DNA of 56,251 bases from a bacterium (GCA_035370465.1 DAOOVW010000002.1:12939-69189); one strand, 5' to 3'. Shown: positions 24,538 through 55,057, counted from the stretch's first letter. Program-made: numbers and translations. The notes: generated by a model from the sequence alone, not told the origin.

Positions 24538-24830
24538 GGTAGTGTCAAAAATAGATGAAAAAGAGATGAAAGAGAAAAAACACTCTTCAAATCCCCCTCA
24601 ATCCCCGTTGTGCCTATTGAAATACATTACAGCACCAACTCTGTGTGCTAAACTTTGCAACTTTAGTCAGTTTACTAAAGGGGGAAGTAATGAGGGAAAT
24701 ACTCCTTCCCTTTATAAGGGAAGGAGGGCTCGCCCGTAGGGCTATGCCCGAGGGGATGGATTTCAACTTTTCACATTTCACCTGTCTTTGTGAGAAAATG
24801 TAAGGTGAATTTGGGGAGATAATTTTGGCA
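24538..24830 (+). repeat. Composite modular repeat, copy A (L arm + 1 core unit + R arm)
   Basis: L arm GGTAGTGTCAAAAATAGATGAAA starts at 24538. The core spans 24590-24763 (AAATCCCCCTCA..CCCCGTTGTGCC..GCACCAACTCTG..TTTAGTCAGTTTACTAAAGGGGGAA..CTCCTTCCC-TTTATA-AGGGAAGGAG..GGGGATGGATTT). The R arm ends in AATTTTGGCA at 24830. It is homologous to the copies at 30.3, 44.3, 51.3 and 54.8 kb. Confidence 0.9.
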
Positions 24831-24859
24831 ATACCCAAATAAAAAGCAGGAGAGAAAAA

Positions 24860-25684
24860 ATGAAAATATATATAATGACTGATTTGGAAGGAGTTGCAGG
24901 AGTACTTGATTTTGATAATTGGTGTAGTCCTGAAAGTAGATATTATGAGGTAGCAAAAGAGTTTCTAACAATGGAAGTAAATTCAGCAGTTGAAGGATTT
25001 TTTGAAGGAGGAATAAAAGAAATAGTTGTTGCTGATGGGCATGGTCCAGGTGGAATAAATCCAAAACTTCTTGATAAAAGAGTAAAACTTTTAAGAGGAT
25101 GGCAAAAGTGGCCATTATTATTGGATAAGTCGTATGATTTTGTTGCTTTTGTGGGACAACATGCTAAATCAAGAACAGAATTTGCTCATATAGCACATAC
25201 ACAAAGTTTTTCATATTTTGAAATGAGAATAAATGATATAGCAATTGGAGAATTTGGGCAATTTTCTATGTGTGCAAGTGAATTGGGAGTAAGGACAATA
25301 TTTGCATCAGGAGATAAAGCATTATGTAAAGAAGCAGAAGAACTTATTCCTGGAATTGTGACTATCACTGTAAAAGAAGGAACTACACCAGGAAAAGGTG
25401 ATGAGTGTCCAAGAGAAGCATATCGCAGAAGAAATAATGCTGCTATTCATTTACATTCAGAGAAAGCAAGAGAATTAATAAAAAAAACAGCGTATAAAGC
25501 AATAAAAAAAGCAATTGAATATCCGGACTGGGGAATTATTCCGTTAAAAGCCCCTTTTAAAAGAGTTGTTATATTTAGACCAGACCAAGATTTTGGTAAA
25601 AGAATATCAATAGAGGAACATTCAAGTAGTGTTATAGAGGTAATGAACATGCCTTATAACCCAAAAAACTATGATGAAATTTAA
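24860..25684 (+). CDS. Peptidase M55 (DppA-type D-aminopeptidase) family protein (copy 2)
   Basis: MKIYIMTDLEGVAGVLDFD, VADGHGPGG and GEFGQFSMCASELGVRTIFASGDKALCKEA. It is a paralog of 17963..18751. Confidence 0.8.
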   Translation: MKIYIMTDLEGVAGVLDFDNWCSPESRYYEVAKEFLTMEVNSAVEGFFEGGIKEIVVADGHGPGGINPKLLDKRVKLLRGWQKWPLLLDKSYDFVAFVGQHAKSRTEFAHIAHTQSFSYFEMRINDIAIGEFGQFSMCASELGVRTIFASGDKALCKEAEELIPGIVTITVKEGTTPGKGDECPREAYRRRNNAAIHLHSEKARELIKKTAYKAIKKAIEYPDWGIIPLKAPFKRVVIFRPDQDFGKRISIEEHSSSVIEVMNMPYNPKNYDEI

Positions 25685-25692
25685 TAAAATAA

Positions 25693-26280
25693 ATGGAATA
25701 TTTTGAAAAAATATTAGAAAACGCTTTATTTTTATTAATAGTAATAAATCCTGTAAGTAAAATTTTAATAATAAATTCATTAATAGACGAAGGAAAACAA
25801 TTTATAAAAAATATTTCAGTTAAGTCATCTTATACAGGACTGATAATTCTTATAATTTTTGCAGTTGGAGGTAATTTTATTTTAAGAAATATTTTTAGAA
25901 TAAACATTTATTCCCTTCAAATAGCAGGGGGAATTATACTTTTTCTCTTTGGACTAAATGCCTTATTAAAAGGGGGATTTGGAATAGATGAGACAAAAGA
26001 TACAGAAGAAATTGCAATGATTACTCTTGCTTCAATGATAGCAGGACCAGGGACAATAACTGCAACTATTTCTTTATCTGCTGTTTATGGAGTAATTTCA
26101 GTATGTATTTCAATTATTCTGGCTGTCTTTATAAATTTTATTTTGATGATATATTCAATTGAAATAGGAAAGTTATTAGGAAAAAATTTATTAGGTCCAC
26201 TTGTAAGATTAACTGGTTTTTTTATCTCAAGTATTGGAATGAATATGGCTTTTACTGGAATTAAGGAATTTTTAAAATAA
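25693..26280 (+). CDS. MarC family (UPF0056) integral membrane protein
   Basis: About 195 aa with six hydrophobic segments. It has an N-terminal NPVSKILI motif and a second GPGTITATI motif typical of the MarC family. Confidence 0.7.
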   Translation: MEYFEKILENALFLLIVINPVSKILIINSLIDEGKQFIKNISVKSSYTGLIILIIFAVGGNFILRNIFRINIYSLQIAGGIILFLFGLNALLKGGFGIDETKDTEEIAMITLASMIAGPGTITATISLSAVYGVISVCISIILAVFINFILMIYSIEIGKLLGKNLLGPLVRLTGFFISSIGMNMAFTGIKEFLK

Positions 26281-26314
26281 AAAGAAGCATCAAAACTTTT
26301 GAAAGGAGATTAAA

Positions 26315-27628: not shown

Positions 27629-27680
27629 AAATTCAGATAATATTATCCAATTACAATAGTTAAAAATATAAGTGCATAGA

Positions 27681-28877: not shown

Positions 28878-28896
28878 TATAATTACTCCATCCATA

Positions 28897-30180
28897 TTAA
28901 CTTTGTTTTACTTCTTTTTTGTATAATTGGTCAATATCAGGAACTTTACCATTTTTTAGTTTGTATAACACTTCCCCTGCTTTTTCAACTACAAGTATTC
29001 CTTCATTTTCCCTGTTTTTATAATTTTCTCTGTCCAGAGTATCAGGATTAATATATCCCAAATTTATTTTCCGGCATATTTCTTCACTTATTCCTGTTGC
29101 AAGAATTACTTCAATTCTCGGTTTTTCAATTCCATCTATAAAAGTCCCTATTCCTTTAACATGTGTTGAATGAGCAAGAATACAACCAGGATAATTTTTA
29201 AATTTCTCCCATTGTTTTAGAAAATAATCTCTTGTATGATAACCAACTTCTTCTAAATATTTTCCGTGAGTATATGACACAACATTTATATGAGGAGCAA
29301 AAATAATAAGTTTTCCTCCATCAGCAACAACTGGTTCAAGTTTATACATACATTTTCCTGCTGTCCATATATCATCATACATAGGTGGTGCAACTGAAAT
29401 TACCATATTAAATGGCATATCAACATATTTTATATTTATTTTTGAAGAAAGTTGTGCTGCTTTTTCCCAGTCATCTGTATCACCAGCAAAAACACCGTAA
29501 ATTAAGTTTTCATTTACTACATAGTTTATTAAATGAACTTTTTTATTTATAAATGAAGCTGCAATATTTATTACATCTCGGACAGGTGTTTTTATTACTC
29601 CATTTATTTTAGGATTTGTTATTAAAGCTCCTAACCAGTGGAATTTATGTAAAAATTCAGGACCGCAAATTCCTGGAAAAAAATACTTATAACCACCTGA
29701 AAAACCAACAACTTCATGGGGAAAAACAGGACCGGAAATAATTATTTCATCATATTGAAAGATTTTTCTATTTATTCTAACAGGAATATTTTCATTTAAA
29801 AGGGTGCTTATATATTCTCCCATCTGTTGTTTATTTATTATACCGATTTCTTCAAGTGCCTCTGAATTATTCCACTGGTGCTGGAAAATTTCTGTTTCTT
29901 CATTTCCTTTTATATCTAAAAATTCTCTTATTTTTTCATCAGACATTTCTGGATGTGTTCCAAGTGCAATCATAAAATCAATTTTTTTTACTTTCTTTTT
30001 TAGAATATCTAAAATTGAATGAAAAAAAAGAGCAGTTGGTCCTGACCTTGTTGTATCAGGAATTATCACAAGGACCTTTTTATTAGAAAAATCATTTTCT
30101 TTTGTTAAATAATTTTCCAAAATTTTTCTTATTTCCTCTTCACTAATTATTCTATTTACCTCTCCTTTACCTGTTCCCAT
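28897..30180 (-). CDS. LarA-like (nickel-pincer dependent lactate racemase family, DUF2088) protein
   Basis: VLVIIPDTTRSGP, ALGTHPEMS and PHEVVGFSGGYKYFFPGI match the LarA pattern (D.TR, G.H, H...GFSGG.K...PG). The 427-aa length is typical. Confidence 0.65.
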   Translation of the reverse strand: MGTGKGEVNRIISEEEIRKILENYLTKENDFSNKKVLVIIPDTTRSGPTALFFHSILDILKKKVKKIDFMIALGTHPEMSDEKIREFLDIKGNEETEIFQHQWNNSEALEEIGIINKQQMGEYISTLLNENIPVRINRKIFQYDEIIISGPVFPHEVVGFSGGYKYFFPGICGPEFLHKFHWLGALITNPKINGVIKTPVRDVINIAASFINKKVHLINYVVNENLIYGVFAGDTDDWEKAAQLSSKINIKYVDMPFNMVISVAPPMYDDIWTAGKCMYKLEPVVADGGKLIIFAPHINVVSYTHGKYLEEVGYHTRDYFLKQWEKFKNYPGCILAHSTHVKGIGTFIDGIEKPRIEVILATGISEEICRKINLGYINPDTLDRENYKNRENEGILVVEKAGEVLYKLKNGKVPDIDQLYKKEVKQS

Positions 30181-30265
30181 ATCTACCTCGTTTTTATTTA
30201 ATATGGTACTTCCAAAAATCTCGTCTTATTTGCAATGTTTTGTGGTTAATCTTTGGGCGGATATA

Positions 30266-30622
30266 AAAATCCCCCTCACTCCCGTTGTACTATCTGAAGG
30301 ACAATAACACACCAACTCTGCTTTGCTAATCATCCCCTCTTTTGTCGGGCTGTCAAAGGGGGAACATTTGTCTCCTTCCTTTATAAAAGGAAGGTGGGGA
30401 TGGATTTCCTGTAATTTCCTTAAATCCCCCTCTCTCCCCGTTGTGCTATCTGGAAAATCTCCCCTAACCCCTCTTTACGAAAGAGGGGTGTATTTTGGAA
30501 TAACGCACCAACTCTGCTTTTCTACCCTTTGCTTCTTTAGTCGGTTTGTTAAAGAGGAAATACACCTTCCCTTAAGAGAAGGAATGCTCGCCCGTAAGCT
30601 CCTCGCTTTTAGCTACGCATCC
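30266..30622 (+). repeat. Modular repeat, copy B (two tandem core units, no outer arms)
   Basis: Unit 1 spans 30266-30407 and unit 2 spans 30420-30622. Both show the box order CCCGTTGT(A/G)C..CACCAACTCTG..GTCGG..AAAG(G/A)GGAA..CCTTCC hairpin. Unit 2 carries an extra nested hairpin, CCCCTCTTT-ACGA-AAGAGGGG (30468-30488). The repeat ends 4 nt from the gnd stop codon. Confidence 0.85.
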
Positions 30623-30626
30623 TAAT

Positions 30627-32129
30627 TTATTTAGTTATTTCTTTTTCAGGTCTTCCTGGTAATAACCACTCAGTATGAAATTCCCTTATTTTTCCATTTT
30701 CTGTTTCTAATATCTCAGGACTTTCTTCTCCGCCAATTTTAAAATATCCATGTGCTCCAAAGTAATCTCTCTGTAAAGCAGTTACCTGACAGGCAAACAT
30801 AATTGGTGAAGTTAATTGTAAAATATAATCATAGGAATTTGCCAATCCTAATGCAGGAACTCCGACTTTATGAGAAATTTCAACCAACTTTCCAAGTTTC
30901 CATAAATTCTTTTTAATAAAATCAGAAAATTTACTGTGTGCAATCAAATTTAAAAGTTCAGGATTCTCTAAATATGCCTTTGTAATTTCATCAAGAAATT
31001 GTGCTCTTATAATGCATCCTGCTCTCCATATTTTTGCTATTTCTCCTAAATTTAAGTTGAATTTATAAAACTCAGATGCAGATTTAAGAAGTGCAAAACC
31101 CTGAGCATATGAAGAAATTTTACCTATATAAAGTGCATCATGAGCAATATCAATAATATCTTCCTTTTTCTCATTTAGTTCTTCTCTGATATTAAGAGGT
31201 AGAATTTTACTCATTTTCAATCTTAAATCTTTTTCCCCAGACATTTCTCTTGAAAACACAGCAGAAGATATTGTTGGAACAGGAACAAGTAATTCCAATG
31301 CACTTTGAACTGTCCATGTTCCAGTCCCTTTCATTCTTGTAATATCTGCCACAATATCAACAAGATATACTCCTTCGTTTCTTTTATCTTTTTCTTTCAA
31401 AAGGTCCGATGTAATTTCTATAAGATAAGATGATAATATATCATTTTTGTTATTCCACTTTTCCATAATTTCACCAATTTCTTCGCCTTTCATACATAAA
31501 GCATTTTTAAAAAACCAGCAAACTTCTCCAATAAGTTGCATATCTCCATATTCAATTCCATTATGTGTCATTTTTACAAAATGCCCTGCTCCACCAGGAC
31601 CAATAAAAGATACACATGGAGAACCATCATACGCTTTTGCTGAAATATCAGAAAACATTTTTTCAATAAGTTGATATGCTTCTTTTGAACCACCTGGCAT
31701 AATAGAAGGACCTTTTAAAGCCCCTTCCTCTCCACCAGAAACACCAGTTCCGATAAATAAAATTCCTTTTTCTGTTAAATATTCATATCTCCTGATAGTA
31801 TCTTTAAAATATGAATTTCCACCATCAATTATAATATCTCCCTTTTCAAGAAATGGAATAAGTTTTTCAATAAAATCATCAACTGGTTTTCCTTCTTTTA
31901 CCATCATCATTATTTTTTTAGGTTTTTTCAATAGTCCAACAAAATCCTTTATTTCATATGCTGGAATAATTTTTTTCCCTTTTGCCTGTGTTTCCACAAA
32001 ATTTTTTGTTTTCTCTCCTGTTCTATTATAAACAGCAACAGTATAACCCTTATCTTCAAAATTAAGGGCAAGATTTTTACCCATAACCTCCATTCCAATT
32101 ATTCCAATATCACATTTTTCCATTTTCAT
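30627..32129 (-). CDS. gnd: 6-phosphogluconate dehydrogenase (decarboxylating)
   Basis: IGIIGMEVMGKNLALN, GGNSYFKDT, GTGVSGGEEGALKGPSIMPGG and AGHFVKMTHNGIEYGDMQLI. Confidence 0.93.
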   Translation of the reverse strand: MKMEKCDIGIIGMEVMGKNLALNFEDKGYTVAVYNRTGEKTKNFVETQAKGKKIIPAYEIKDFVGLLKKPKKIMMMVKEGKPVDDFIEKLIPFLEKGDIIIDGGNSYFKDTIRRYEYLTEKGILFIGTGVSGGEEGALKGPSIMPGGSKEAYQLIEKMFSDISAKAYDGSPCVSFIGPGGAGHFVKMTHNGIEYGDMQLIGEVCWFFKNALCMKGEEIGEIMEKWNNKNDILSSYLIEITSDLLKEKDKRNEGVYLVDIVADITRMKGTGTWTVQSALELLVPVPTISSAVFSREMSGEKDLRLKMSKILPLNIREELNEKKEDIIDIAHDALYIGKISSYAQGFALLKSASEFYKFNLNLGEIAKIWRAGCIIRAQFLDEITKAYLENPELLNLIAHSKFSDFIKKNLWKLGKLVEISHKVGVPALGLANSYDYILQLTSPIMFACQVTALQRDYFGAHGYFKIGGEESPEILETENGKIREFHTEWLLPGRPEKEITK

Positions 32130-32140
32130 CTCCTTTTATT

Positions 32141-33208: not shown

Positions 33209-33212
33209 TTTC

Positions 33213-36200
33213 TTATTTTGACTCTAATCTTTCTTTATAAATTTTCGCTCTTTCTCCTAATGACTTAAATATTATAAAGACCCCCTCCCCTTTTCTTTCT
33301 GGCGGCAATTGGTCATTATGTGGTCTCCATAAACCTGCTCCTGGATTTGGTTCAATTTTATAAACAACAAGGGATGGTATTTCATTGCCTCTTTTGTCAT
33401 ATAATTTTCTTTTTTCTCCTTTTTCATTAAATAGAGGAATTGATAAAACCTTTTTATTTTTATCAACTCTTTTTATCTCTTTCATATTACTATCAAATAT
33501 TTTTATCTTAGTTGGATTACCTTTTTCATCATATAGAGGTATAAGTTTTTCTTCTTTTTCATCAAAAATATATTTTAAATTATCATCTTCATCTATAAGA
33601 AAAACAGGCATATAATCCCCCATTTCATAAGGAATATCATTTATTTTAAAACCGGTTAAATCAGAGAAAATTTCATCATACTTTACTTTTGACATAAATT
33701 CTGGATAAATTTTTAAATATTCATTTAAAACATATTTCCAATTCTTTTTTAAATATTTTCTTTGGGATTCCATACTTGAAAATGCTGCTTTTGTTATTTG
33801 TATCCTCATGTCGTTTCTATATTTTGGATTAATAATATCATCAGTATATTCAAAAAGTAGACCGCCCTGTCCAACATTGGCAATACCTTGAGTACTTATA
33901 ACAGTTATATGATGCGAAATTTTATAGTCACTTTTTTCAAAAACAAGAATCTGCCTGAAATATGAATACAATGGTGTCTGTGGTTCTCTATCAAGTAATA
34001 CAGGAACCCCAATTCTTGCAAATCTTTCAACAAGTTTTTCTAAAAATTCTTTTGAATATAATTGCCTTACTCTTGATTCAAGTACCTGCTGAATTACAAC
34101 ATTATCTGTTTTAGAAATTTCAAAAGTTAATTCTACCAATTTATCTATATTTTCTTCAATATATTTCCCATTTTCTTTTACTGGAAGTATAAGTGATTTT
34201 CTTCCTCCTGATTCTTTTTCTGGTTTTACAATCAATGCATCATATTTTCTTGCCAATTTGTATATTTTTTCTTTAATTTTATTCTTTGACTTACCTCCAT
34301 ACTTTTCAGTATCTTTTATATACCAGTTTTCCTGCTCAGGTGTTTTAACCCCAGAACCTTTTAACATTTTGGGAAGTTCACATTTAAGGTGAGTTGCTGC
34401 TTCCCATATTAATGGCTGGATTATTGGTATTCTGTAAGTATCTATTTCAGACCTTAATGGATGAGTAAAATGGAAAAAAATTCCATGAAGTGTAATTACC
34501 CCTTTAAATGTTCCAAAGACCAGTCCATTTTCATTTTCACCAAATTTTTTATATTTCTCTCTGAGTTTTTTTATGTCATTTTGGTTTGGATAGAACATAC
34601 CTTCTCTTATTGTAAGAACTTTTTTATCTTCTTTTAATTCAGGAATAGGAAATGAAGTTAAGAAAAGATTTATATTGGCATTTGTTGAAAGGATTGGTCC
34701 TTGTTGTAAAGCAACAGGAACCGTTGTATTGCCATAGGGATATATTATCCCAAGATTAACTCTTTCAGATACAGATAAGTCAGCAGGGTCAATCTGCATA
34801 ATTATTTCTGGGTATCCAAAACCCTCATATTTTAAAACAACACTATCTCTTAGACGAACATAATGAAACCAAAAATCCTCGTCTTTATTCTCCCCTCTTA
34901 TTCCAATCCCATAAATATTTTTATCAAAATTTCCAAGATATAAATCAGTATAATCAGAAGAAAATTTCTTCATAGATGTTTTTTCAGATATAAGAGACCT
35001 TAAATATGTATATAGATACCTATGATATTGACAGGCAAGTTGAAATTTCTTATCTCTTGGAATTTTTTCAAAAGTTGAGGACCTTTCTTTTGAATAATGG
35101 TAAGGGAGAGAATCAAAAATATGATTATTTACTGTTAAATCAAAAAATTTAGATATTTCAGTATTAAATTCCTCATCTGAATTGAGATTAATTGTTTTTT
35201 CAATTAAAAGTGAAATATCAATAAGTTCAAGTCCAGCACAGATTTCATTGTAAAATTCATAATTTCCTGTCTTTACATCAGCGGAACTGGCAAGATTTGT
35301 AACAAGAGATAAATAGTTTTTATCAGTTATCACATTTTCTGAAAATAAATTATTTATATCCTGTAATAAATTTTTCCCATTAAAAGATACAATCTCTTTA
35401 TTAAGAAATTCAAGATATAATTTTGAAATCCGCAGATATTTTCCGAAATCATAGGGAGAAATAGTATTTGTCCCTTTTCCTATAATTTCTTTCGCCTTTC
35501 CATATATAAGAGAAAGATTTTTAGGATAATTTTCTATTACCTTTTCTACATCAAGGAAACCTCTTTTCTTTTCTCTTATGCATTTTACTCTTTCAATTTC
35601 TTTTTTTCTTTCTTCCCACCTTGCAAGTCCCTCAACTTTTTCTTCAACTGCTTTTAGAGAACCAGCAAGTCCTGTACTTATCTCTCTATACTTATATTGT
35701 TTAGGTGGATGATAAATAGACCTTAAAAAGTTGTTAACAATAAAATCTATTTCTTTTTGTCCATAACTTTCTTTACCTGAAACACCAAATAATTTTTTTA
35801 ATTTTATTCTATATTTTTCTCTTAATTCTGAAATTTCTTCTTTTTCTAATTTCCCATTTATAATATAACTTCCTCCATAAATTATCCATTTCCCAAAATC
35901 AAATTCATTTAGTTTTATACCTTTTGAAATTTTTGCAAAAGTATCAGTTATATATCTATCTCTCAAATTCCATACGCCTAAATTTTTTGCATCTCTTTCC
36001 TCTCTTAAAACATCGTCAAATTTTCTTTCAATAAGAATATTCTTTTTTATTCTATTTAAAACCTCTCCTGCTTTTTCTTTGTTCTCATTTAATATAGCAG
36101 TTAAAAATTCCTCACTTAAACTTTTCTCATCATTTAATTGGTTTTTCCATTTTTCAATTGTTTCTTTTCCTATTCCAAGACAACCATAAACAACTTTTTC

Positions 36201-39200
36201 TTCAAGTGCAAAAAGTTCTTTTACTTTCCTTCTGCAGTTCGGATAATTAAAAGCAAATGTAGGTCTTCTTGCCCCAGAAGTTCCGTCTGCAAAAACCAAC
36301 CCACTATTTGGCCTTCCTTTTTTCATCAAATAAAGCATCTTTGGTAAATTATCAACTAATTCTAATAGTTCCGGGTCAGGTATCCCCAGGTCAATGAAAT
36401 CAATACCTTGAATTGCCTCTTCATATGAAGAAAAAGGTCCTCTTTTGTCAATAACAAGAAGATGGATTTTCCCTTCAAGGTCTTTTATTATTTTTTCTTT
36501 TTCTTTCTCTGTTCTATCCTTTATTCCTATCCACCTTTTTAAATTTCCTCCATATACAAGGCAATTTGTCCTTATAATATTTTCATCAATTCCAATATTT
36601 AATAAGTAATTCTCAACTTCATTTTTTATTTGTTCAAGTCCTGAATTAGGCACATGATTTAGAATATCTGAGCCAGTGCAACTGCCAACAATTCTAATAT
36701 CAGCAGGTGGAATAAAATCTTTGAACATCTCTTTAATTATTTCTCTTCCTTCCGGGTCAATATCAAGAAGTATATGATTATCTGCAACATTAGAATATAT
36801 TTCAAGTTTTCTGCTTCCTGCACTGAACCTCACATCAGAGACAGGTATCAATTTCCCATCTTTTTTCTCCCCTTCTTTATAATTTGCTGTCATAACGCCT
36901 ATCAATTCACTGTCATCAACTAAATATGGATTTTTCTTCCTTGCCTGATGTATAAGTTGATAAATAAGTTTAACTTTTCTAAAAGGACCTGTTCTATTTA
37001 TTTCTTCTAAACCCTGTGCTTTTTTGTTAACCCAGTAAGTAAATTTATATTCAAGTTCTTTTTCTTTATTTTCAATAAGCCCCATTTTCCCAAGTATCTT
37101 TGCAATTTGTGGTAATCTTGAAAGACAGATGGGCTTTCCAATTATTCCAAAATATTCAGGATATTTTTTGAAAAGATAAGAAGTTGCTTTTTCTTCCCAT
37201 TCTAATTCAGAAGTAATTTCTGCTCGCCAACCAAGAACTTCTCGCAAATCTTTTATTATATGTTCCTGAATTTTTTCTGGTATTCCAAATGAAGATAATA
37301 TCTGAGAAGATATTTCTCTATCAACACATGCTATAATTATTGCATAAAGAAGACTGAATTCCTTAGGAACACAAAAACCTCCATATGTTTCACCTGCTGG
37401 TAAGACCTTTCTATCACCTCTTGCATTCCATTGATTTCTGAAAAATTCAAAATCGCCCATTCCCAGTGTATCAAGATTTATACTGCCTGCTAATGAAAGA
37501 TAATAGACACCACCTCTTGAAAAGAAATTTTCCCCTACTTTTAAAAATTCAGTTACTCTTGTAGAAGGAACAACAGTTGGACCTGCAATATTATAAAGGC
37601 GATATAATTCTTTCCCAGAATTTGCAGAAATATCATCTATACCACCTACCCATTTAGGAATATCTCTTACTGAAAAAACTTCTTTTGCTCCAAGGTCCAC
37701 TCTGCTTGGAGTATAAAGTAAGTTATATCTTTTAAAAGGGCCTTCTGCTTCATATCTAAAAAGTGGATTTGAAAGTTCACTTATTAAATTTTCTTCAACA
37801 ATAACTTCTTTTTGAGCATTAATAGTTGAATATGTTGGATTGAGATAATTTTTAAGAAACTCTTTTGTTTCTTTTTCTAGATTGAAATTTCTAATCATAT
37901 CTTCTCTTGTTTTCTTTAAAATTTTCAGATTCTCTTCTTCCTTTATATCAATTAAATTTATATTTTCCAGACATTTTAAAACGCATTCTGGTTCTTTTAC
38001 TTTAAAATCTTTTCTATTTAAATTTTCACCCTCTTTTTGCAACAGAATTATTATTTTTGATACTTCTTTTCCTATTTCTGGATAAGAAAAAAGACATTTT
38101 AATATTCCCTGTTCTCCTTCTCCTAACTTGTAAATTTCCCCTTCAAGATTGTTTTCTTTAATTATTTTTTCACCTATTTTTATTATATTTTGTCTCCATA
38201 TTTCCATTTTTCCTTTTACTTTTTCTTCAAGTTTGTGTCTTCTTATAATATTGAATAAAAGCATACTTTCCTCAAGCCAGTTTTTTACATTAAGTTCGCT
38301 TTCACCCGGTCCAAGAGTAGTTAAAATATGAATAGAAGGAAGATTCCTTTTTGGATAATCTACAAGCGATAAATATTTCTCATGGAGTTCCAGAATACAA
38401 TGTTCTTCAAGGAATTTTTCAAGTTGATTTTTTAATGATTTAATGCCTTTATAATTTTTCAAAAATTCTTTTACCAGATTACCTTTTTCCACTTCATTTA
38501 TAGCAAGTGTTAATCCTTCAAATCTTAGCAGTTTCTCTCTTTCACATATTTCAGATATCTGCCTAATCATATTCTCATATGATTTTTCAATGAGTGCAGA
38601 AATATAGGCAATTTCCTTCTTTTTATTTCTTGTTCTTTCAATTAATTGTTTTTCATCCTTAAAATTTATCTTTAAAATTTTGGAGAGAATATTTCTTGCA
38701 AGAAAAACATTTTCTGTAAGCATAACCTCTTCTATATTTAATGCCCAGTTTTCAGCATTTGTTCTGTACATTTCCTCAAGAATATTTCTCTGAACCCATG
38801 CAGTGAACTTATAAGAACCATTTTCAGGTATTATTTGATATGTTGCATATGCAGGAAGTGCTTCTATCCAGTCATCACAAATTCTAAGCCAGTCCTTCAT
38901 ATCAGGTGTTACATAAATGTTTTCCCCCCCATTTGCAAGTAAATTTTCAATTTCAGGGTCCTCCCCAAAAAAAGGGTCAAGTAATTCATTTAAAAGTCCC
39001 ATATATATTGCATCTATTGGAAAAACCCTCTGGAAAAATATCATATAAATAGGTGTTCTTGATGGAAATTTGTTTAATTCATTTTCAAATTTTTTTATTT
39101 CAACTCTGATATTGTCAAAAACTTTTCTATCCTGCATCATAAATTCTGCATTCTCATCAAATTTCTGGACAAGTTGAAATTCATAATTTCTTAATGTATC

Positions 39201-39857
39201 TTTTAAGTTTTTCAATCCACATTTTATCTGTGCAATAGAGACATCATTTTCTCCTGTTAAATTATCAAGAAATTGTATATCACTTTCTATTGGTAAAAAA
39301 CTAATTTTTGACTTTGAAATTATTCTTCTTATTTTTTCTAAAAGGAGAGTTATTACATTTGAAGAGAGCAATTTTGAATTTGCTAAAAGTAAAGCATCAA
39401 TATAAAAAGCACGACTGAATCTTCCACATACAATTCTTCTTCCCGATTCTTTTCTATCTAAAGCAATTTTCTCACAACATTCTCTGTCTTGTTTTTCATC
39501 ATATGTTTCTCTTATTGCTTCATAAATCTGGCTTCTTAAATTTTCAAGGTCTTTTACTGTCTCTATAACATATTTAACTTTTTCTCTATTATAAGGCAAA
39601 CCAAAGTTTTTTCTTGACAAAAGTAGCGCACACAATTTTTTTCTCTTTATTACATCTTTTTCTTTTTCCCCTTCCTCAAGAAAATTTATATACCATTGCC
39701 CATTTTTTTCCTTACTGAATATTTTTATTATTTTATTCCTTTGAGATGGAGAAAATTTTTCATAAATTGAAATGTAAGATAAAAGAACTTCCTTTTTCCC
39801 TTCTGCCTTCAAATTTTTAATAAATTTTCCTATTTTCATTTTATATAAATTCTGCAC
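33213..39857 (-). CDS. Giant (2,214 aa) multidomain protein: unknown N-terminal region + UDP-glucose/GDP-mannose dehydrogenase-like module + unknown middle region + RimK/GshB-like ATP-grasp C-terminus
   Basis: The ORF is uninterrupted over 6.6 kb. Dehydrogenase-like motifs: GEGEQG (aa 579-584), TEFLKVGENFF, PAGETYGGFCVPKEF (Cys829) and VMTANYKEG..VSDVRFSAGSRKL. ATP-grasp motifs: ALIVKPEKESGGRKS (aa ~1874-1887), GIANVGQGG (aa ~1991-1999) and KIEPNPGAGLW (aa ~2167-2177). An alternative ATG at 39839 lies 1 nt after the upstream stop. Confidence 0.6.
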   Translation of the reverse strand: MQNLYKMKIGKFIKNLKAEGKKEVLLSYISIYEKFSPSQRNKIIKIFSKEKNGQWYINFLEEGEKEKDVIKRKKLCALLLSRKNFGLPYNREKVKYVIETVKDLENLRSQIYEAIRETYDEKQDRECCEKIALDRKESGRRIVCGRFSRAFYIDALLLANSKLLSSNVITLLLEKIRRIISKSKISFLPIESDIQFLDNLTGENDVSIAQIKCGLKNLKDTLRNYEFQLVQKFDENAEFMMQDRKVFDNIRVEIKKFENELNKFPSRTPIYMIFFQRVFPIDAIYMGLLNELLDPFFGEDPEIENLLANGGENIYVTPDMKDWLRICDDWIEALPAYATYQIIPENGSYKFTAWVQRNILEEMYRTNAENWALNIEEVMLTENVFLARNILSKILKINFKDEKQLIERTRNKKKEIAYISALIEKSYENMIRQISEICEREKLLRFEGLTLAINEVEKGNLVKEFLKNYKGIKSLKNQLEKFLEEHCILELHEKYLSLVDYPKRNLPSIHILTTLGPGESELNVKNWLEESMLLFNIIRRHKLEEKVKGKMEIWRQNIIKIGEKIIKENNLEGEIYKLGEGEQGILKCLFSYPEIGKEVSKIIILLQKEGENLNRKDFKVKEPECVLKCLENINLIDIKEEENLKILKKTREDMIRNFNLEKETKEFLKNYLNPTYSTINAQKEVIVEENLISELSNPLFRYEAEGPFKRYNLLYTPSRVDLGAKEVFSVRDIPKWVGGIDDISANSGKELYRLYNIAGPTVVPSTRVTEFLKVGENFFSRGGVYYLSLAGSINLDTLGMGDFEFFRNQWNARGDRKVLPAGETYGGFCVPKEFSLLYAIIIACVDREISSQILSSFGIPEKIQEHIIKDLREVLGWRAEITSELEWEEKATSYLFKKYPEYFGIIGKPICLSRLPQIAKILGKMGLIENKEKELEYKFTYWVNKKAQGLEEINRTGPFRKVKLIYQLIHQARKKNPYLVDDSELIGVMTANYKEGEKKDGKLIPVSDVRFSAGSRKLEIYSNVADNHILLDIDPEGREIIKEMFKDFIPPADIRIVGSCTGSDILNHVPNSGLEQIKNEVENYLLNIGIDENIIRTNCLVYGGNLKRWIGIKDRTEKEKEKIIKDLEGKIHLLVIDKRGPFSSYEEAIQGIDFIDLGIPDPELLELVDNLPKMLYLMKKGRPNSGLVFADGTSGARRPTFAFNYPNCRRKVKELFALEEKVVYGCLGIGKETIEKWKNQLNDEKSLSEEFLTAILNENKEKAGEVLNRIKKNILIERKFDDVLREERDAKNLGVWNLRDRYITDTFAKISKGIKLNEFDFGKWIIYGGSYIINGKLEKEEISELREKYRIKLKKLFGVSGKESYGQKEIDFIVNNFLRSIYHPPKQYKYREISTGLAGSLKAVEEKVEGLARWEERKKEIERVKCIREKKRGFLDVEKVIENYPKNLSLIYGKAKEIIGKGTNTISPYDFGKYLRISKLYLEFLNKEIVSFNGKNLLQDINNLFSENVITDKNYLSLVTNLASSADVKTGNYEFYNEICAGLELIDISLLIEKTINLNSDEEFNTEISKFFDLTVNNHIFDSLPYHYSKERSSTFEKIPRDKKFQLACQYHRYLYTYLRSLISEKTSMKKFSSDYTDLYLGNFDKNIYGIGIRGENKDEDFWFHYVRLRDSVVLKYEGFGYPEIIMQIDPADLSVSERVNLGIIYPYGNTTVPVALQQGPILSTNANINLFLTSFPIPELKEDKKVLTIREGMFYPNQNDIKKLREKYKKFGENENGLVFGTFKGVITLHGIFFHFTHPLRSEIDTYRIPIIQPLIWEAATHLKCELPKMLKGSGVKTPEQENWYIKDTEKYGGKSKNKIKEKIYKLARKYDALIVKPEKESGGRKSLILPVKENGKYIEENIDKLVELTFEISKTDNVVIQQVLESRVRQLYSKEFLEKLVERFARIGVPVLLDREPQTPLYSYFRQILVFEKSDYKISHHITVISTQGIANVGQGGLLFEYTDDIINPKYRNDMRIQITKAAFSSMESQRKYLKKNWKYVLNEYLKIYPEFMSKVKYDEIFSDLTGFKINDIPYEMGDYMPVFLIDEDDNLKYIFDEKEEKLIPLYDEKGNPTKIKIFDSNMKEIKRVDKNKKVLSIPLFNEKGEKRKLYDKRGNEIPSLVVYKIEPNPGAGLWRPHNDQLPPERKGEGVFIIFKSLGERAKIYKERLESK

Positions 39858-43230: not shown

Positions 43231-43250
43231 ATTTTTTTTCTCCTCGTATA

Positions 43251-44168
43251 TCAGTTCTTTTCAGGCACAGTAAAAGAAATCCCTGTCCTTTCATCATAAA
43301 CTTGTGTGCCAGGTGGAAAAGTTAAATTAAATTCTTCATCTTTTATCCCTTGGTTAACTTTTATATTAGAATATACCATTTTACCTTCTGCACTGATTTT
43401 TTTGGAAGAAGGATCATACCATTTTATAGAAACTCCTCCTGGGAACCATATATCTTTGTCTATACTAAATTTTTCAAAATTAATAGGACCTACACTTATT
43501 ATTAAATCTTCCTGTCTGTATATTTCAATTTTTTTAGGCAAAAAACCTTCTTCCACAGAGAACCATATTTTATATCCTAAATAGGAATAATCATCCTTGC
43601 CATATCCTTTGAACTCTTTAAATCCAAAACTTGGAACTTCTACTACAAAACATTTACTCCCAGCAAAATATTCAGAATTAGATAGTATTTTTAATTTTTC
43701 ATTTTGGAGAATTTCTTCCAAAGTAATACCCACAGGCCACAGATGAAATAGAATGGATGAAGGAACCCAAGTCGGTCTAATTTTTAGTTGAATATAATAA
43801 GGTGAATATCCCATAGTAACTGATGCAATTTTACCTTTCTCAAAGTTTATTATATAAGTGTTTTCAGGAGTGTAAATATAAATAATTTCATTTATATTTT
43901 TTGATTCATCCACTGCTTTAAGAAAAACTTTTTCTTTGCCATCTTTATAAAACCATTTTCCGCTTTTTATTTCCTTGCTATTTTTATAAGTTAGTTCAAA
44001 TTCTACCGATGCATCTTGTATAAGAGACAGGTTATACCTAATTCCTTGTAAAACAAATTCTAATTCATCTTTTGGCTCACAAAATACAAAGTTAGTTTTG
44101 GTAATACAAGCATTTTGTAATACAAATACCAATATACTCAGAAAAATAATTTTTTTTATTTTGTCCAT
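43251..44168 (-). CDS. Secreted LolA/RseB-like protein, paralog 2
   Basis: Signal peptide MDKIKKIIFLSILVFVLQNAC and C-terminal FNLTFPPGTQVYDERTG. I prefer the ATG at 44168 (GGAGGG upstream) over the listed TTG at 44201, which lies inside the repeat arm. Confidence 0.4.
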   Translation of the reverse strand: MDKIKKIIFLSILVFVLQNACITKTNFVFCEPKDELEFVLQGIRYNLSLIQDASVEFELTYKNSKEIKSGKWFYKDGKEKVFLKAVDESKNINEIIYIYTPENTYIINFEKGKIASVTMGYSPYYIQLKIRPTWVPSSILFHLWPVGITLEEILQNEKLKILSNSEYFAGSKCFVVEVPSFGFKEFKGYGKDDYSYLGYKIWFSVEEGFLPKKIEIYRQEDLIISVGPINFEKFSIDKDIWFPGGVSIKWYDPSSKKISAEGKMVYSNIKVNQGIKDEEFNLTFPPGTQVYDERTGISFTVPEKN

Positions 44169-44195
44169 TTTCCCTCCTATGTTAAAAGAGGGTAC

Positions 44196-44598
44196 TGCCA
44201 AAATTGGCTAATTAAATTCACTCCTCACTTTCTCACAAAGACAAATGAAATGTGAAAAGTGAGATGTGAGAAGTAGAAATCCCGTAAGCGTAACTTATCG
44301 CTTCGGCGTAGGGATGGTCTGTAAGCAAAACTCTAAACCCTTCTGTGTAAGACAATCCACCCCTGCCCTCCTCCTCTACTAAAACATTGGCGGACATGTT
44401 TTTTAAAGGAGGGAGAGTATTTTCCCCCTTTAGTAAACCGACTAAAGTTGCAAAGTTTAGCACACAGAGTTGGTGCTGTAATGTATTTCAATAGGCACAA
44501 CGGGGATGAAGGAGGATTTTGAGAGGGATCTAACAAGCACAACGGGGTAGGGAGATTTTTATTTTTCATCTCTCTTTTATCTATTTTTTGACACTACC
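44196..44598 (-). repeat. Composite modular repeat, copy C (R arm + 40-nt hairpin module + 1 core + partial core + L arm)
   Basis: TGCCAAAATT at 44196 is the R-arm end on the minus strand. Hairpin module AAATCCCGTAAGCG..GCGTAGGGATGG at 44278-44317. Core at about 44351-44520. An extra partial GCACAACGGGG box at about 44537-44548. L arm CTATTTTTTGACACTACC at 44581-44598. Confidence 0.9.
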
Positions 44599-44833: not shown

Positions 44834-45737
44834 TTATTTCTTTTCAGGCACGGTAAATATAGTATTAGTTATCCTATCATATACATTCATTCCAGGTTGA
44901 AATTCAGGTTCAAAAATTTTGTCAGAAATTTCGTTATTTACTTTTATGTTCGTATATTCTATTTCTACAACTGCATTTTTTTCTCCTTTAATATCAGTAT
45001 ATCCAATAAATTTTTGTGGAAACCATATATCACCTATTTTTGTATATGATATTATAGAAACTATTGTTGTAGTGGAACCTATTTTTGTTTCTATTTTTGC
45101 TGATAAAAAATTCTCTTCTGAAATCCAAAATGTATAGTCGATGTTTTTATAATCAGAAGGACGGTAAACCAAAGGATAACATTTTTGGTTATTAACATAT
45201 TCAACCTTTTTCAATTCTATCTTCCCGGAAGAAAAAATTTTTTTTAACAGATACACCTGGCCAAAAATGAAAAAGTACAGAAGAAGGAGGAGTAACAGAA
45301 TATATACCTAAATTTTGTATTCCAACAGGAGTAATCAGTATTTGTTTATCTTGTATTTCTACATATTTTTCTCCATCACAATAAATTTTGCCTTGTCCTT
45401 TTTCATATGTTTTCTTAATGTACTCTACAACTTCTTTGCCTCTCTTATATTTCCAGAAACAGTTATATGTTTCTTTTTTTTCTTTTGTGTATGGAACTTT
45501 TTCATAGTCCTCCTTTTTAAAAAACCCTGATTTTGAAACAGAGGGAGGATGTTCATACCATTTCTGTTCTTGTTTTATTGTATAATTGCACTCTCCTGAT
45601 CGAATCATCTCAACAGCATATTCCCACCCTTTTAAAACAAACTCTTTTTTACTATTCTCTTGGCACCATCCTATGTTATTAGACAAAATATACCCTATCG
45701 GCACTATCCACATAACTATTTTTATTATTTTTGACAT
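44834..45737 (-). pseudogene. LolA/RseB-like paralog 3, disrupted by a frameshift in an A8 tract
   Basis: ORFs 45201..45788 and 44834..45256 overlap and together align with paralog 2 (LFHFWPGVSVKK | IFSSGKIELKKVEYVNNQKCYPL against LFHLWPVGITLEEILQNEKLKILSNSEYFAGSKCFVV). The frames switch at T8 on the plus strand (45238-45245), which is A8 in the coding sense. The likely true start is the ATG at 45737 (MSKIIKIVMW...). Confidence 0.65.
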
Positions 45738-45823
45738 TTTAAGTGTCCTTTTTATCTTAATTCTTTTTATTTTGGCATTGTGGTGCATAACCGCAAGAAG
45801 GATAGTCTTTACTTAAAATAACT

Positions 45824-45866: not shown

Positions 45867-45875
45867 GAATTTAGG

Positions 45876-46646: not shown

Positions 46647-46691
46647 CTTATCCCTCCTTGTATTTTTCTTTTATATAAAATACCATTTAAT

Positions 46692-51147: not shown

Positions 51148-51246
51148 TTTCTTCTTTTTCCTTTGTATTAAGTTTCCTGTTTAAATTTCAGAGCAAGTAG
51201 TGAAAAAAAACCTTCTCACTTTTCTTGTGCTTACTAATCTTTTTTA

Positions 51247-51387
51247 TAAAATCCTCCTTCATCCCCGTTGTGTCTATTGAAATACATTACGGCACCAACT
51301 CTGTGTGCTAAACTTTGCAACTTCAGTCGGTTTGCAAAGGGGGAAGTATGTCTCCTTCCTTTGAAAAAGGAAGGTTGGGATGGATTT
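51247..51387 (+). repeat. Modular repeat, copy D (single core unit)
   Basis: AAAATCCTCCTTCATCCCCGTTGTGTCTATTGAAATACATTACGGCACCAACTCTGTGTGCTAAACTTTGCAACTTCAGTCGGTTTGCAAAGGGGGAA..CTCCTTCC-TTTGAAAA-AGGAAGG..GGGATGGATTT. It lies between the kinase start and the phosphatase stop. Confidence 0.9.
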
Positions 51388-51442
51388 CTCTTTTTTACAC
51401 TTTCAATTCGCTACTTTTCGGTCAACACAGTTGACTGAGTAT

Positions 51443-52186: not shown

Positions 52187-52193
52187 TTGAATA

Positions 52194-52490
52194 TTATTGG
52201 CTGGCAGGAGGGATTTTATTCTCTGTTTTTTCTACCTGTTGCTTTAATATACTTTTATTTGTTAATTTGCCCGGAGTAACAGCAAGAATTAAGGAAGAGA
52301 CAATAAAAATTATTGCTAAAATAGTTGTAATTCTATTTAAAATAGTAGGCGTCTCTGCCCCAAAAACAGTTTCCATTCCTCCACCACCAAAAATATTAGC
52401 CATAGAAGAACCTTTGCCACTTTGTATCAAAACAAAAAACATTAAAAGAAGACAGACAATAATATGAAAAACTAAAAGAAAAGTGTACAT
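52194..52490 (-). CDS. secG: Preprotein translocase subunit SecG
   Basis: 98 aa with two TM segments. LLMFFVLIQSGKGSSMANIFGGGG is the typical SecG motif. It sits in the classical position downstream of tpiA. Confidence 0.8.
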   Translation of the reverse strand: MYTFLLVFHIIVCLLLMFFVLIQSGKGSSMANIFGGGGMETVFGAETPTILNRITTILAIIFIVSSLILAVTPGKLTNKSILKQQVEKTENKIPPASQ

Positions 52491-52574
52491 TTTTTCTCCC
52501 TTTTAATCAACTCAAATTTTTTTATAATTATTTCTCTTTCCCCCTTCCCTTCCTCTCCCTTAAAGAAAAATTTC

Positions 52575-53324
52575 TTATACTTTATAATTAATAATTCTTA
52601 AAAATTTATCAATATCTAAACTTGCTCCACCAACCAAAACACCGTCAATATCTTTTTCCTTCATTAAATCATCTATATTATCAGGACTTACACTCCCTCC
52701 ATAAATAACTCTTATTAAATCTGCAATTTCCTGATTATAATTTTCTCCAATCCATTTTCTTATAAAAGTATGAACTTCTTCTGCTTGTTGTGGAGTTGCA
52801 TTTTTCCCAGTTCCAATTGCCCAGACAGGTTCATATGCGATTGTCAGTTGTTCAATATATTCAAAATCAGATAGACATTTTTCCAGTTGTTTTTTAATAA
52901 TATCAAATGTTTTATTGCTTTCTCTTTCTTCTAATTTTTCACCAATACACAGAATTGGTTTTAGTTTATATTGAATAACTTTTTTAACTTTTTTATTTAT
53001 AATTTCATCTATTTCACCAAAAATATTTCTCCTTTCTGAATGTCCACAAATAACATACTCAACACCTATATCTTTCAGCATCAAAGGAGAAATTTCTCCT
53101 GTAAAAGCACCTTTCTCTTCATAAAAAACATTCTGAGCCCCTAAAAGTAATGAGGAATTTCTAATAATATCAGAAATGGGATATAGAGATGTAAAAGGAG
53201 GACAAATAAGAATTTCTCTATCATTATAATTTCCAATATTCTTAATTAAATTCGTCACAAATTCAATTGATTCAGAAGGTGTTTTATTCATTTTCCAATT
53301 TCCTGCTATTAATGTTTTTCTCAT
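52575..53324 (-). CDS. tpiA: Triosephosphate isomerase
   Basis: IAGNWKMN, ICGHSERR, AYEPVWAIGTG and YGGSV. Confidence 0.96.
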   Translation of the reverse strand: MRKTLIAGNWKMNKTPSESIEFVTNLIKNIGNYNDREILICPPFTSLYPISDIIRNSSLLLGAQNVFYEEKGAFTGEISPLMLKDIGVEYVICGHSERRNIFGEIDEIINKKVKKVIQYKLKPILCIGEKLEERESNKTFDIIKKQLEKCLSDFEYIEQLTIAYEPVWAIGTGKNATPQQAEEVHTFIRKWIGENYNQEIADLIRVIYGGSVSPDNIDDLMKEKDIDGVLVGGASLDIDKFLRIINYKV

Positions 53325-53334
53325 TTAAAAACTC

Positions 53335-54516
53335 CTATTTTTTTAATACATCAATTCCAGGGAGAGTACCTTTTTCTAAAAATTCAAGAGAAGCACCACC
53401 ACCGGTAGAAATATGAGAAATCTTATCTGCAACACCTGCCTTATTAACAGCAGCAATTGAATCCCCTCCTCCTATAACAGAAAATGCATTTGAATTTGCC
53501 ACTGCTTTTGCTATTTCAATTGTCCCTTTTGCAAATTTATCAATTTCAAATATTCCCATAGGTCCATTCCAGAAAATTGTTTTTGCCCTATTGACACAAT
53601 CAGTATATTCTTCAATTGCCTGTGGTCCTATATCAACTCCAATCCATCCCTGAGGAATAGTTCCTCTTTCGGTAATTAACACTTCTGCATCAGGAGAAAT
53701 TTTATTTACAATAATATGGTCAAGTGGAGTATGAAACTCCAAGTGCCTTTTATTTACTTCTTTTATAATTTCTTTTGCAAGAGGTATTGCTTCTTCATCA
53801 ACTTTTGAACTACCTATTTCCCAGTGTTTTGCCTTTATAAATGTATAAGCCATAACTCCACCTGTAATTAGAGTGTCAACTTTATCAATCAAATTTTTTA
53901 TCATTCCTATTTTATCAACAACTTTTGCTCCCCCAATAATTAAAAGAAAGGGCTTTTCGGGATTTGATAAAAGTTTTGATAAGGCATCAACCTCCTTTTT
54001 AATTAGAAAACCAGCAGCAGTGTCTTTACAATACTTTGTTATCTGATAAATTGAAGCATGCTCTCTATGACAGGCAGCGAAAGCATCATTAACATATGCA
54101 TCAGCAAGTGAAGCAAGTTGTTTTGCAAATTCATCATTTCCTTCTTCTTCTTCTTTGTGAAATCTTAAATTTTCTAAAAGTAATACATCTCCTTTTTTTA
54201 AATTTTCAACTACTTTTTTTACTTCATCACCAACACAATCAGGAACAAATTTAACTTCTTTATTTAGTAATTCACTTAATCTTTCTGCAACAGGCCTTAA
54301 ACTCATTTCAGGAACAACTTTTCCTTTTGGTCTGCCCAAATGAGAAGATATAATTAAAATAGCACCCTGTGAAAGAAGATAATTTATTGTAGGTAATGAG
54401 GCAGTTATTCTTGTATCATCAGTTATCCTGCCATTTTCAATAGGTACATTAAAATCAACTCTCAAAAAAACTTTTTTACCGCTATAATTTTGTTCTTCTA
54501 TCGTCTTAATTTCCAT
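53335..54516 (-). CDS. pgk: Phosphoglycerate kinase
   Basis: RVDFNVP, SHLGRPKG, FWNGPMGIFE and STGGGASLEFLEG-like end. Confidence 0.97.
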   Translation of the reverse strand: MEIKTIEEQNYSGKKVFLRVDFNVPIENGRITDDTRITASLPTINYLLSQGAILIISSHLGRPKGKVVPEMSLRPVAERLSELLNKEVKFVPDCVGDEVKKVVENLKKGDVLLLENLRFHKEEEEGNDEFAKQLASLADAYVNDAFAACHREHASIYQITKYCKDTAAGFLIKKEVDALSKLLSNPEKPFLLIIGGAKVVDKIGMIKNLIDKVDTLITGGVMAYTFIKAKHWEIGSSKVDEEAIPLAKEIIKEVNKRHLEFHTPLDHIIVNKISPDAEVLITERGTIPQGWIGVDIGPQAIEEYTDCVNRAKTIFWNGPMGIFEIDKFAKGTIEIAKAVANSNAFSVIGGGDSIAAVNKAGVADKISHISTGGGASLEFLEKGTLPGIDVLKK

Positions 54517-54543
54517 TTTACCTCCTTCTTACTGTAAAGGTTC

Positions 54544-55057
54544 TGCCAAAATTGGTTAATTAAATTCACTCCCCACTTTCTCACAAAGACAAATGAAATG
54601 TGAAAAGTGAAAATCCATCCCCTCGGGCATAGCCCTACGGGCGAGCCCACCTTCCTTTATAAAAGGAAGGAGTATCTTCCCCCTTTCACAAACCGACTAA
54701 AGTTGCTTACCTTGTTTCTCAGAGTTGGTGCGTTATCGTTTCCCAGATAGCACAACGGGACTTAGGGGGATTTATAATTAAAATCCATCCCGGCCTTCCC
54801 TTAGTAAGGGAAGGAGTATTTCCCTCATTACTTCCCCCTTTAGTAAACCGACTAAAGTTGCAAAGTTTAGCACACAGAGTTGGTGCCGTAATGTATTTCA
54901 ATAGGCACAACGGGGATTGAGGGGAATTTGAAGAGGGATTGTTCTACACAGGCAGTTTAAAATATAGCATACGAACCATCCCTACGCCGAAGCGATAAGT
55001 TATGCTTACGGGATTTTTATTTTTCATCTTTCTTTCATCTAAGTTTTTGACACTACC
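54544..55057 (-). repeat. Composite modular repeat, copy E (R arm + 2 core units + 40-nt hairpin module + L arm) in the gap-pgk spacer
   Basis: The R-arm end TGCCAAAATT is at 54544. Cores span 54611-54773 and 54781-54929. The hairpin module spans 54977-55016, inverted relative to its copy at 44278-44317. The L arm ...TTTTTGACACTACC ends at 55057. Confidence 0.9.

Follow-up and report, generated by a model that had tools for sequence, protein, structure and literature searches.

Hairpin-rich core units and a MITE-like shell: a probable two-layer family of non-coding mobile DNA in an uncultured Candidatus Ratteibacteria population

Several families of short non-coding repeats offer themselves for comparison with the DNA described here. 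The BOX elements of pneumococcus have the architecture boxA-boxB(n)-boxC, while REP sequences measure 20–40 nt and feature a GTAG-type 5' tetranucleotide. Insertion sequences (ISs) of the IS6/IS26 group are marked by G at positions 1, 2 and 7 together with an 8-bp target-site duplication (TSD), and the terminus GGnnnTG is common to IS1 (PMC6807381). Putative mobile promoters are repeated non-coding sequences found directly upstream of unrelated genes, and Correia elements are miniature inverted-repeat transposable elements (MITEs) cited with strong promoters (PMC3575422). Here we analyse a repeat family in a 56,251-nt stretch of bacterial DNA (GCA_035370465.1 DAOOVW010000002.1:12939-69189; hereafter the window), in which seven hairpin-rich core units, described as MITE-like in an earlier sequence-only reading, occupy five intergenic loci between positions 24,538 and 55,057. 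The repeats are probably selfish non-coding mobile DNA built in two layers, a MITE shell and the hairpin core units that travel in it as passengers. The window falls within a 187-kb contig (JGI) of anaerobic-digester origin, and its PGK is 99% identical to an NCBI protein labelled Candidatus Ratteibacteria; the source is an uncultured Candidatus Ratteibacteria population of anaerobic digesters. The DNA examined from this population amounts to only ~0.4 Mb, selected for the presence of units, and gene calls outside the window are ORF-based (ORF, open reading frame).

Three of the window loci share sequence outside their core units, namely an L-end (GGTAGTGTCAAAAAATAGATGAAAGAAAGATGAAA, starting GGTAGTGTCAAAAAATAGATGAAA..) and an R-end (..AATTTTGGCAGWACC), asymmetric to it, that reads toward a gene. 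The tips of this shell are terminal inverted repeats (TIRs; GGTAGTGTCAAAA versus GGTWCTGCCAAAA, identical at 10 of 13 positions) present at both ends of 11 complete elements, and the two ends, GGTAGTG and GGTWCTG (GGTAGTG..../....CWGAACC), both fit GGnnnTG. One such element, composite MITE 5 (54539-55057, minus strand, 519 nt), lies in the gap|pgk spacer, its boundary 22 nt ahead of the ATG of pgk (54516), and consists of an L-end (55057-55015), a segment called module X (55026-54955), two core units (54929-54781 and 54773-54611) and an R-end region (54610-54539). It is flanked by the TSD TTTACAGT, with a gene-proximal copy at 54531-54538 and a distal copy at 55058-55065 (both minus strand). 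The same 8-mer is single in strain L085 (GCA_029551025.1, ~97% nucleotide identity), where the site reads ...GAATGTTTACAGTAAGAAGGAGGTAAAATG, compared with ...GAATGTTTACAGT[GGTAGTG...519 nt...GCAGAACC]TTTACAGTAAGAAGGAGGTAAAATG in the window. Because the L085 site is empty, the gap|pgk composite, comprising L-end, module X, both units and R-end, was inserted whole with an 8-bp duplication. Further perfect 8-bp duplications are ATAATGAA in L080 and TTTATTTA, whose empty allele is found in L090 (GCA_964481085.1). Across the complete shells (n=11 for the TSD statistics), the 8-nt flanks agree at 8/8 positions twice, at 7/8 once (L052) and at 6/8 once (L056).

The TTTATTTA copies lie at 30193-30200 and, overlapping the 6PGD stop codon, at 30626-30633, and they enclose a 425-nt insert (30201-30625, plus strand) that holds an R-end (30205-30262) and two units (30266-30407 and 30420-30622, both antisense to the flanking genes) and no L-end; the R-end tip points toward the larA-like gene start at 30180, 24 nt off. 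This block is missing from strain L090, which has a single TTTATTTG and a 13-nt spacer, and from species L086. Composite MITE 1 (24538-24835, plus strand) comprises an L-end (24538-24583, GGTAGTGTCAAAAATAGATGAAA..), a core unit (24589-24763) and an R-end region (24764-24835, ..TAATTTTGGCAATACC) whose boundary is 24 nt upstream of the M55 peptidase ATG (24860); its TSD is not preserved (2/8). Composite MITE 3 (44191-44598, minus strand) has an L-end (44598-44553), a truncated 5' unit fragment (~44558-44537), a core unit (44520-44351), an inverted module X (44338-44267) and an R-end region (44266-44191) ending 22 nt upstream of an ATG at 44168. Module X itself (CCCGTAAGC..GCTTCGGCGTAGGGATGGTTCGTATGC..) thus occurs at 44267-44338 and 54955-55026 in opposite orientations, 85% complementary, upstream of the units in one composite and downstream in the other, with a third variant at L085:8690-8775.

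The shell is non-coding (spurious ORFs only), 107-519 nt long and represented in ~365 kb by no fewer than 17 distinct R-ends and 14 L-ends. With TIRs, a fixed 8-bp TSD with an empty allele, and small non-coding multi-copy members, it is a MITE, parent IS aside. Its GGnnnTG termini and 8-bp TSD are those of IS6/IS26 or IS1, and like MITEs derived from these families it has imperfect TIRs fitting GGnnnTG, no ORF and many copies of 107-519 nt; unlike them, it has no parent IS or transposase among the DNA examined, and its L-end carries two AGATGAAA direct repeats where the R-end has none. In the window L-ends (24538-24583, 44553-44598 and 55015-55057) these repeats lie 11-12 nt apart, and a perfect outward TTGACA is found five bases from the tip; these could be binding sites for a transposase or a regulator. 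Some shells (107-275 nt) contain no core unit, holding other GC-rich palindromes or nothing, and the units are therefore passengers. The MITE-like label of the sequence-only reading thus holds in that the repeats are mobile, with empty sites in close strains, and fails in its object, since the true MITE is the larger shell. A ~70-nt insertion relative to L085 at 45742-45823, just upstream of the Shine-Dalgarno (SD) sequence of the gene at 45201-45788 (minus strand), includes TGCCAAAAT, a sequence similar to the shell ends; the insertion may be the decayed remnant of a solo end.

The shell keeps a constant position relative to genes. In 17/17 distinct loci, four of them in the window, the R-end faces a long ORF whose ATG lies 20-25 nt downstream of the outer boundary of the R-end, with the SD 11-13 nt from the boundary in every case; only 1.2% of oriented intergenic positions have an R-end-like placement, and nothing comparable was seen at the L-end flanks. 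The start codons concerned agree with independent gene calls where such calls exist. Crowding does not force this arrangement: upstream of the window L-ends there remain 110-235 nt of ordinary spacer. Both young insertions with empty alleles (gap|pgk and 6PGD|larA) share it, and where a duplication exists, 14-17 nt separate the end of the duplicated 8-mer from the ATG. We infer that one of two causes lies behind the placement: the transposition machinery chooses such targets, or an outward promoter or leader in the R-end is under strong selection. We know of no description of a fixed distance and orientation to the start codon for MITEs or putative mobile promoters, nor of orientation-specific insertion 20-25 nt from a start codon for the IS6/IS26 or IS1 families. 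Correia elements and putative mobile promoters resemble the shell as repeated non-coding sequences directly upstream of unrelated genes; Correia elements differ in their TA targets and 26-bp TIRs and are not known to keep a fixed start-codon distance, and the promoter of the shell R-end is only putative. Scans for sigma-70 promoters and for terminators were uninformative, because in this 29% GC genome their counts equal the shuffled background. A Bacteroidetes-type -7 box (TAnnTTTG) in the R-end was dropped, as the motif is not enriched upstream of other genes; a sigma-54 reading of TGGCAG was rejected for want of a conserved TTGC at -12, and a hybrid promoter formed from the outward TTGGCA/TTGACA of the ends was rejected because its -10 would fall on the SD.

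The passengers form a coherent family. The seven units that had been picked out from the sequence alone can be aligned end to end with MAFFT, and a profile built from them (nhmmer) finds in the window exactly 24584-24766 (+), 30263-30410 (+), 30418-30625 (+), 44350-44524 (-), 51245-51388 (+), 54607-54777 (-) and 54777-54934 (-); a covariance model returns the same seven. Their shared ordered boxes are also real: CACCAACTCTG is exact in 7/7 units against 0.30 expected by chance, and CCCGTTGT-N-CACCAACTCTG occurs six times against 0.00 expected. The unit alignment upholds the two proposed interior sub-families, CTATTGAAATACATTAC at 24.6, 44.4, 51.3 and 54.9 kb and TATCTG..GATAAC at 30.3, 30.4 and 54.7 kb, and confirms that one copy, at 30.4 kb, holds a whole extra nested hairpin (~30454-30498). 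The units are 140-175 nt long with a GC content of 43-49%, compared with ~29% for the genome. All five loci are intergenic, as had been claimed (DegT-type aminotransferase|M55 peptidase, LarA-like|6PGD, unknown|LolA-like, Ser/Thr kinase|metallophosphoesterase and PGK|GAPDH), and the 1,791 nt of repeats amount to 3.2% of the window, or to 36% if only its non-coding DNA is counted. The description of a multi-copy, non-coding, hairpin-rich, modular family therefore stands. The sequence-only reading had also taken indels between copies as an argument against coding; the family is indeed non-coding, but these indels stem mostly from nested insertions and unequal recombination.

Each unit is organized as a series of helices. 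P1 closes it (AAATCC(c)CC / GG(g)GATGGATTT, also AAATCCcCC/GGgGATGGATTT) and is followed by P2, a CCCC/GGGG helix ((A/C)(T/C)CCC / GGG(G/A)(A/G)), and by the P3 hairpin (GTTGTGC / GCACCAAC), which has a bulged C and then an unpaired TCTG. The remaining elements are a conserved motif, CTTTAGTCGGTTT, with reliable pairing only at its CTTT/AAAG base, the P5 hairpin (CTCCTTCC(C) / (G)GGAAGGAG) and, ahead of the unit 3' end, an optional small hairpin (CTCGCCCGTAGGGCTATGCCCGAG). Pairing holds in 90% of cells across 20 full-length copies, compared with 43-56% after the partners are slid. Among 128 distinct copies aligned with the covariance model the value is 86.6% against 45-57% in slid controls, with both-sided, compensatory changes in 30/37 pairs against 14-18 in the controls, figures that lean towards structure because the alignment was fitted to it. 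Pairing potential is thus retained despite sequence divergence, as had been proposed. P2 and P5 covary, C-G to U-A, and the P3 stem and CACCAACTCTG are invariant across copies and look like a sequence-specific recognition site. The AAATCC(C)/(G)GGATTT arms pair in 96% of cells (20 sequences) or 88% (128 sequences); they are terminal inverted repeats, but the earlier suggestion that AAATCC..GGATTT are TIRs of the MITE kind finds no support in its original form: the arms behave as the closing helix of a palindrome, and no TSD flanks the units. No RNA-type strand asymmetry was detected (45 G-T versus 24 A-C cells), and the antisense strand folds equally well or better in 15/20 copies, so that the constraint falls on the palindrome and not visibly on one transcript. 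We also considered P3 as an integron attC site. The outer boxes of attC are 5'-RYYYAAC...GTTRRRY-3', and in P3 the GTT sits outside at the 5' end, in the opposite box order; the assignment was rejected.

The core units change rapidly. Mini-elements (AAATCyCCC..CCCCyCTTT-loop-AAAGrGGGG..TATTTTGG) are lodged inside the P3 loop of the 30.4-kb copy (unit 30420-30622, nested element at ~30454-30498), whose 3' end has been replaced, and of at least three others, and the same closing-helix design (CCCCCTCAC...GTGAGGGGG) recurs in palindromes inside shells. L070 and L079 differ by a 250-nt indel; both of its breakpoints fall on one motif (ACTTCAGTCGGTTTATTAAAGGGGA), at matching places in adjacent units, which indicates unequal recombination. 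At lptF|lptG and at metallophosphoesterase|kinase, different mosaics occupy the same site in different strains. The latter spacer carries in the window a naked single core unit (51247-51387, plus strand) antisense to both genes; L085 holds a different module mosaic there, and the orthologous spacer of L086 is 1 nt. Unit arrays run head-to-tail, and units cluster in intergenic mosaics. Their orientation is not random: among unique gaps between co-directional genes, de-duplicated by hand, 26 hold naked units in antisense and 5 in sense, whereas shell-embedded units between co-directional genes are sense in 5/5. The units fail the TSD test and so are not MITEs in their own right; an IS200/IS605-type target tetranucleotide on their 5' side was rejected, as the flanks share nothing. 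A further palindromic repeat, module H (TTATCTTATTTTTTCAAGAACCCGGTTCTC-loop-GAGAACCAGGTTCTTTTATCTTAAC), sometimes has a nested GC-rich hairpin in its loop and nests inside mini-elements; it occurs at L037:6465-6535, L085:1792-1860 and ~13 other places in L054, L062, L063, L066 and L077, and nowhere in the window.

Beyond the window, the search for further copies that the sequence-only reading had called for was run on related metagenome contigs (~365-390 kb) and gave 155 nhmmer hits or 133 covariance-model hits, often tandem or partial. Units cover a quarter of the non-coding bases of these contigs, a figure inflated by the selection of loci that contain units. A pattern scan of metagenome contigs found 38 loci, nearly all in digester or activated-sludge samples, and a scan of genome contigs, in which the source genome did not turn up, found 36 single matches, chance-like apart from L005; among viral contigs there were four single-match contigs for the core pattern and zero for the L-end. 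The same repeat sequences were recovered in independent JGI, ENA and NCBI assemblies, and the repeats vary even among strains with 93-97% identity. More distant relatives (83% and 80% PGK identity) with conserved gene order have zero copies of the units, and profile and covariance-model searches of L086-L090 found none. Spacers in the 80-83% relatives are correspondingly short: 30 nt at gap|pgk, 1 nt at metallophosphoesterase|kinase and 14 nt at 6PGD|larA. In the window the gap|pgk spacer measures 650 nt, compared with 123 nt in L085 and 30 nt in L086/L087; the window's 6PGD|larA spacer measures 446 nt, whereas L090 has 13 nt and L086 has 14 nt. The family is lineage-restricted, fast-changing and recently mobile. 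Contig L005 (positions 1-2576; JAQVET010000083.1), binned as Candidatus Paceibacterota, contains three core units, a module-H palindrome and a second IS110-family transposase, and is probably mis-binned Ratteibacteria DNA; L064:4579-4723 holds a fragment of the 5' non-coding region of the L005 IS.

A course of events can be outlined for the two-layer reading. A DDE transposase encoded elsewhere would move the shell in trans. The shell duplicates 8 bp of its target and comes to lie immediately upstream of an SD with its R-end toward the gene. Units colonise AT-rich spacers, shell interiors and the loops of other units, as their nesting shows, are carried passively when a shell transposes, as at gap|pgk, and gain or lose neighbouring copies by unequal homologous recombination. 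They may first have been seeded by a hairpin-binding enzyme acting on a folded single strand, in the manner of REP/RAYT, or by another process; single-strand recognition is suggested by the invariant hairpin with its covarying flanking helices.

Several observations weigh against this reading. Seven of the 11 complete shells have no recognisable TSD, and the 30.2-kb insert has one recognisable shell end, not opposed by an L-end, with its duplication offset by 3-4 nt. No transposase with matching ends was found by tblastn with IS26, IS1, IS608 and IS200 queries in DNA that represents a small fraction of the genome. IS26-type elements move through cointegrates (PMC6807381), which would be an awkward way for a MITE to spread. 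A promoter role for the R-end is supported by no test, the sigma-70 scan being at background. At unit flanks, including the strain-variable lptF|lptG, there is no TSD and no common flanking target; and pure selfish spread does not predict the 26:5 antisense bias of the naked units.

A more specific version of the two-layer reading is put forward tentatively, as possible although doubtful. It holds that the shell lineage would select its targets by their position relative to the translation-initiation region, inserting in one orientation into 8 bp just upstream of the SD and delivering a leader or promoter together with a hairpin cargo, and that the units would be substrates of an undescribed hairpin-recognising enzyme.

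Three other explanations were weighed, each of them partly supported, and none explains the empty sites and duplications. In the first, the core units are REP/BIME-type sequences spread by a RAYT-like (Y1 HUH) transposase acting on GTTGTGC/GCACCAAC as a single-stranded DNA hairpin, and their orientation bias would be a replication-strand bias. The imperfect hairpin with its bulged C is indeed invariant and adjoins the invariant unpaired TCTG; the units have no TSD, cluster in intergenic mosaics and are biased in orientation, and their structure is kept by compensatory change without the strand asymmetry of an RNA. The REP/BIME and REPIN-RAYT systems of proteobacteria (for REPINs, PMC8049555) are likewise palindromic intergenic mosaics, many in one lineage, with maintained hairpins and no TSD. 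The units are, however, 4-6 times longer (140-175 nt against 20-40 nt) and multi-helical, have no conserved GTAG-type 5' tetranucleotide and form head-to-tail arrays instead of the inverted doublets typical of REPINs. No Y1/RAYT gene was found in the ~0.4 Mb examined (tblastn with IS608 and IS200 queries), where the units do not present the combination that marks the class, namely palindromes of 20-40 nt, copies of which border a RAYT gene. We regard this explanation as unlikely.

In the second, the core units are genes for structured RNAs or cis-acting parts of transcripts (a small RNA, a leader or a stabiliser in the 3' untranslated region), and their spread is secondary. A multi-helix fold conserved with compensatory changes is what would be expected of such an RNA; moreover, one copy folds at z = -3.6, the orientation of naked units is strongly non-random (26 gaps antisense versus 5 sense), and at three window loci units lie in sense within a would-be 5' leader. 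Yet the other copies reach z values of only -0.5 to -1.4, and the strand asymmetry of an RNA is lacking both in the G-T and A-C cells (45 versus 24) and in the antisense folds (equal or better in 15/20). Units occur in both orientations, flanked by no recurrent promoter or terminator; copies are truncated, nested, in tandem, or present and absent between near-identical strains, and the family is missing from sister species with syntenic genes. The sequence-only reading had recognised no named class of non-coding RNA, and the Rfam comparison agrees, with 0 matches at the gathering score and chance-level ones only at E<=5. An RNA function as the primary explanation seems improbable to us.

IS110-family elements target REP-like repeats, and an IS110-family transposase lies in the window (19105-20142, plus strand; Pfam PF01548 and PF02371) with a different one adjoining three units in L005, but a link in which the units are preferred targets of such elements, or non-autonomous derivatives with a guide (bridge) RNA, is very improbable and was rejected, since a search of the non-coding ends of both IS110 copies with the unit profile gave no similarity, the copy in the window occurs in one context only and adjoins no unit, the two transposases are only 20% identical, and the L005 adjacency is one case where units fill a quarter to a third of the spacer DNA. 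The IS110 gene does qualify the earlier statement that no cognate transposase is visible in the window: a transposase gene is present, and a cognate one has still not been found. The element (18752-20193) has a 353-nt 5' non-coding region, a local GC of 0.35 and a strong GC skew; it lies between paralogous GHL6 glycosidase / M55 peptidase pairs (15861-18751; 20194-22242 with 24860-25684), in one genomic context across 7 contigs.

Returning to the two-layer reading, the core units appear by analogy to work like REP/BIME, BOX or mitochondrial GC-cluster modules, and they belong to none of these. BOX resembles them in being modular, intergenic and hairpin-forming, with variable internal modules between pairing terminal modules and no transposase of its own; it differs in showing no sequence similarity and belonging to another phylum, and here the modules nest in loops and ride in an element with TIRs and a TSD. 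Yeast mitochondrial GC clusters are also palindromic modules rich in GC, and they insert both into AT-rich spacers and into one another; ERIC copies are made longer by insertions at fixed positions within them, and MIRU have a fixed orientation relative to operon genes. These three are analogies only, since hosts, sizes and sequences differ and none combines all the features.

Three other features of the window may be recorded. A 2,214-aa ORF at 33213-39857 (minus strand) has no Pfam match at E<=1e-5; its neighbours are two GHMP-kinase-like genes and an ATP-grasp-like gene. Gene orientation switches from plus to minus at ~28880-28900, where the cumulative GC skew peaks; the switch could mark a replication terminus or convergent operons with purine-rich coding strands. 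A XerC/XerD-type tyrosine recombinase gene directly after ligA (4420-5310, plus strand) is probably the housekeeping chromosome-dimer resolvase.

The repeats make up five of the eight longest intergenic gaps of the window, in a candidate phylum known only from metagenomes, and they break assemblies, contigs L039 and L040 ending inside them. Given these breaks and the differences between strains that are 93-97% identical, they are useful strain markers and a reason for caution in binning and annotation. If the placement of the shell is target choice, it would represent a mode of transposon targeting for which we know of no bacterial precedent; if it is selection, the shells would be natural mobile leaders or promoters that rewire operon-internal genes such as pgk.

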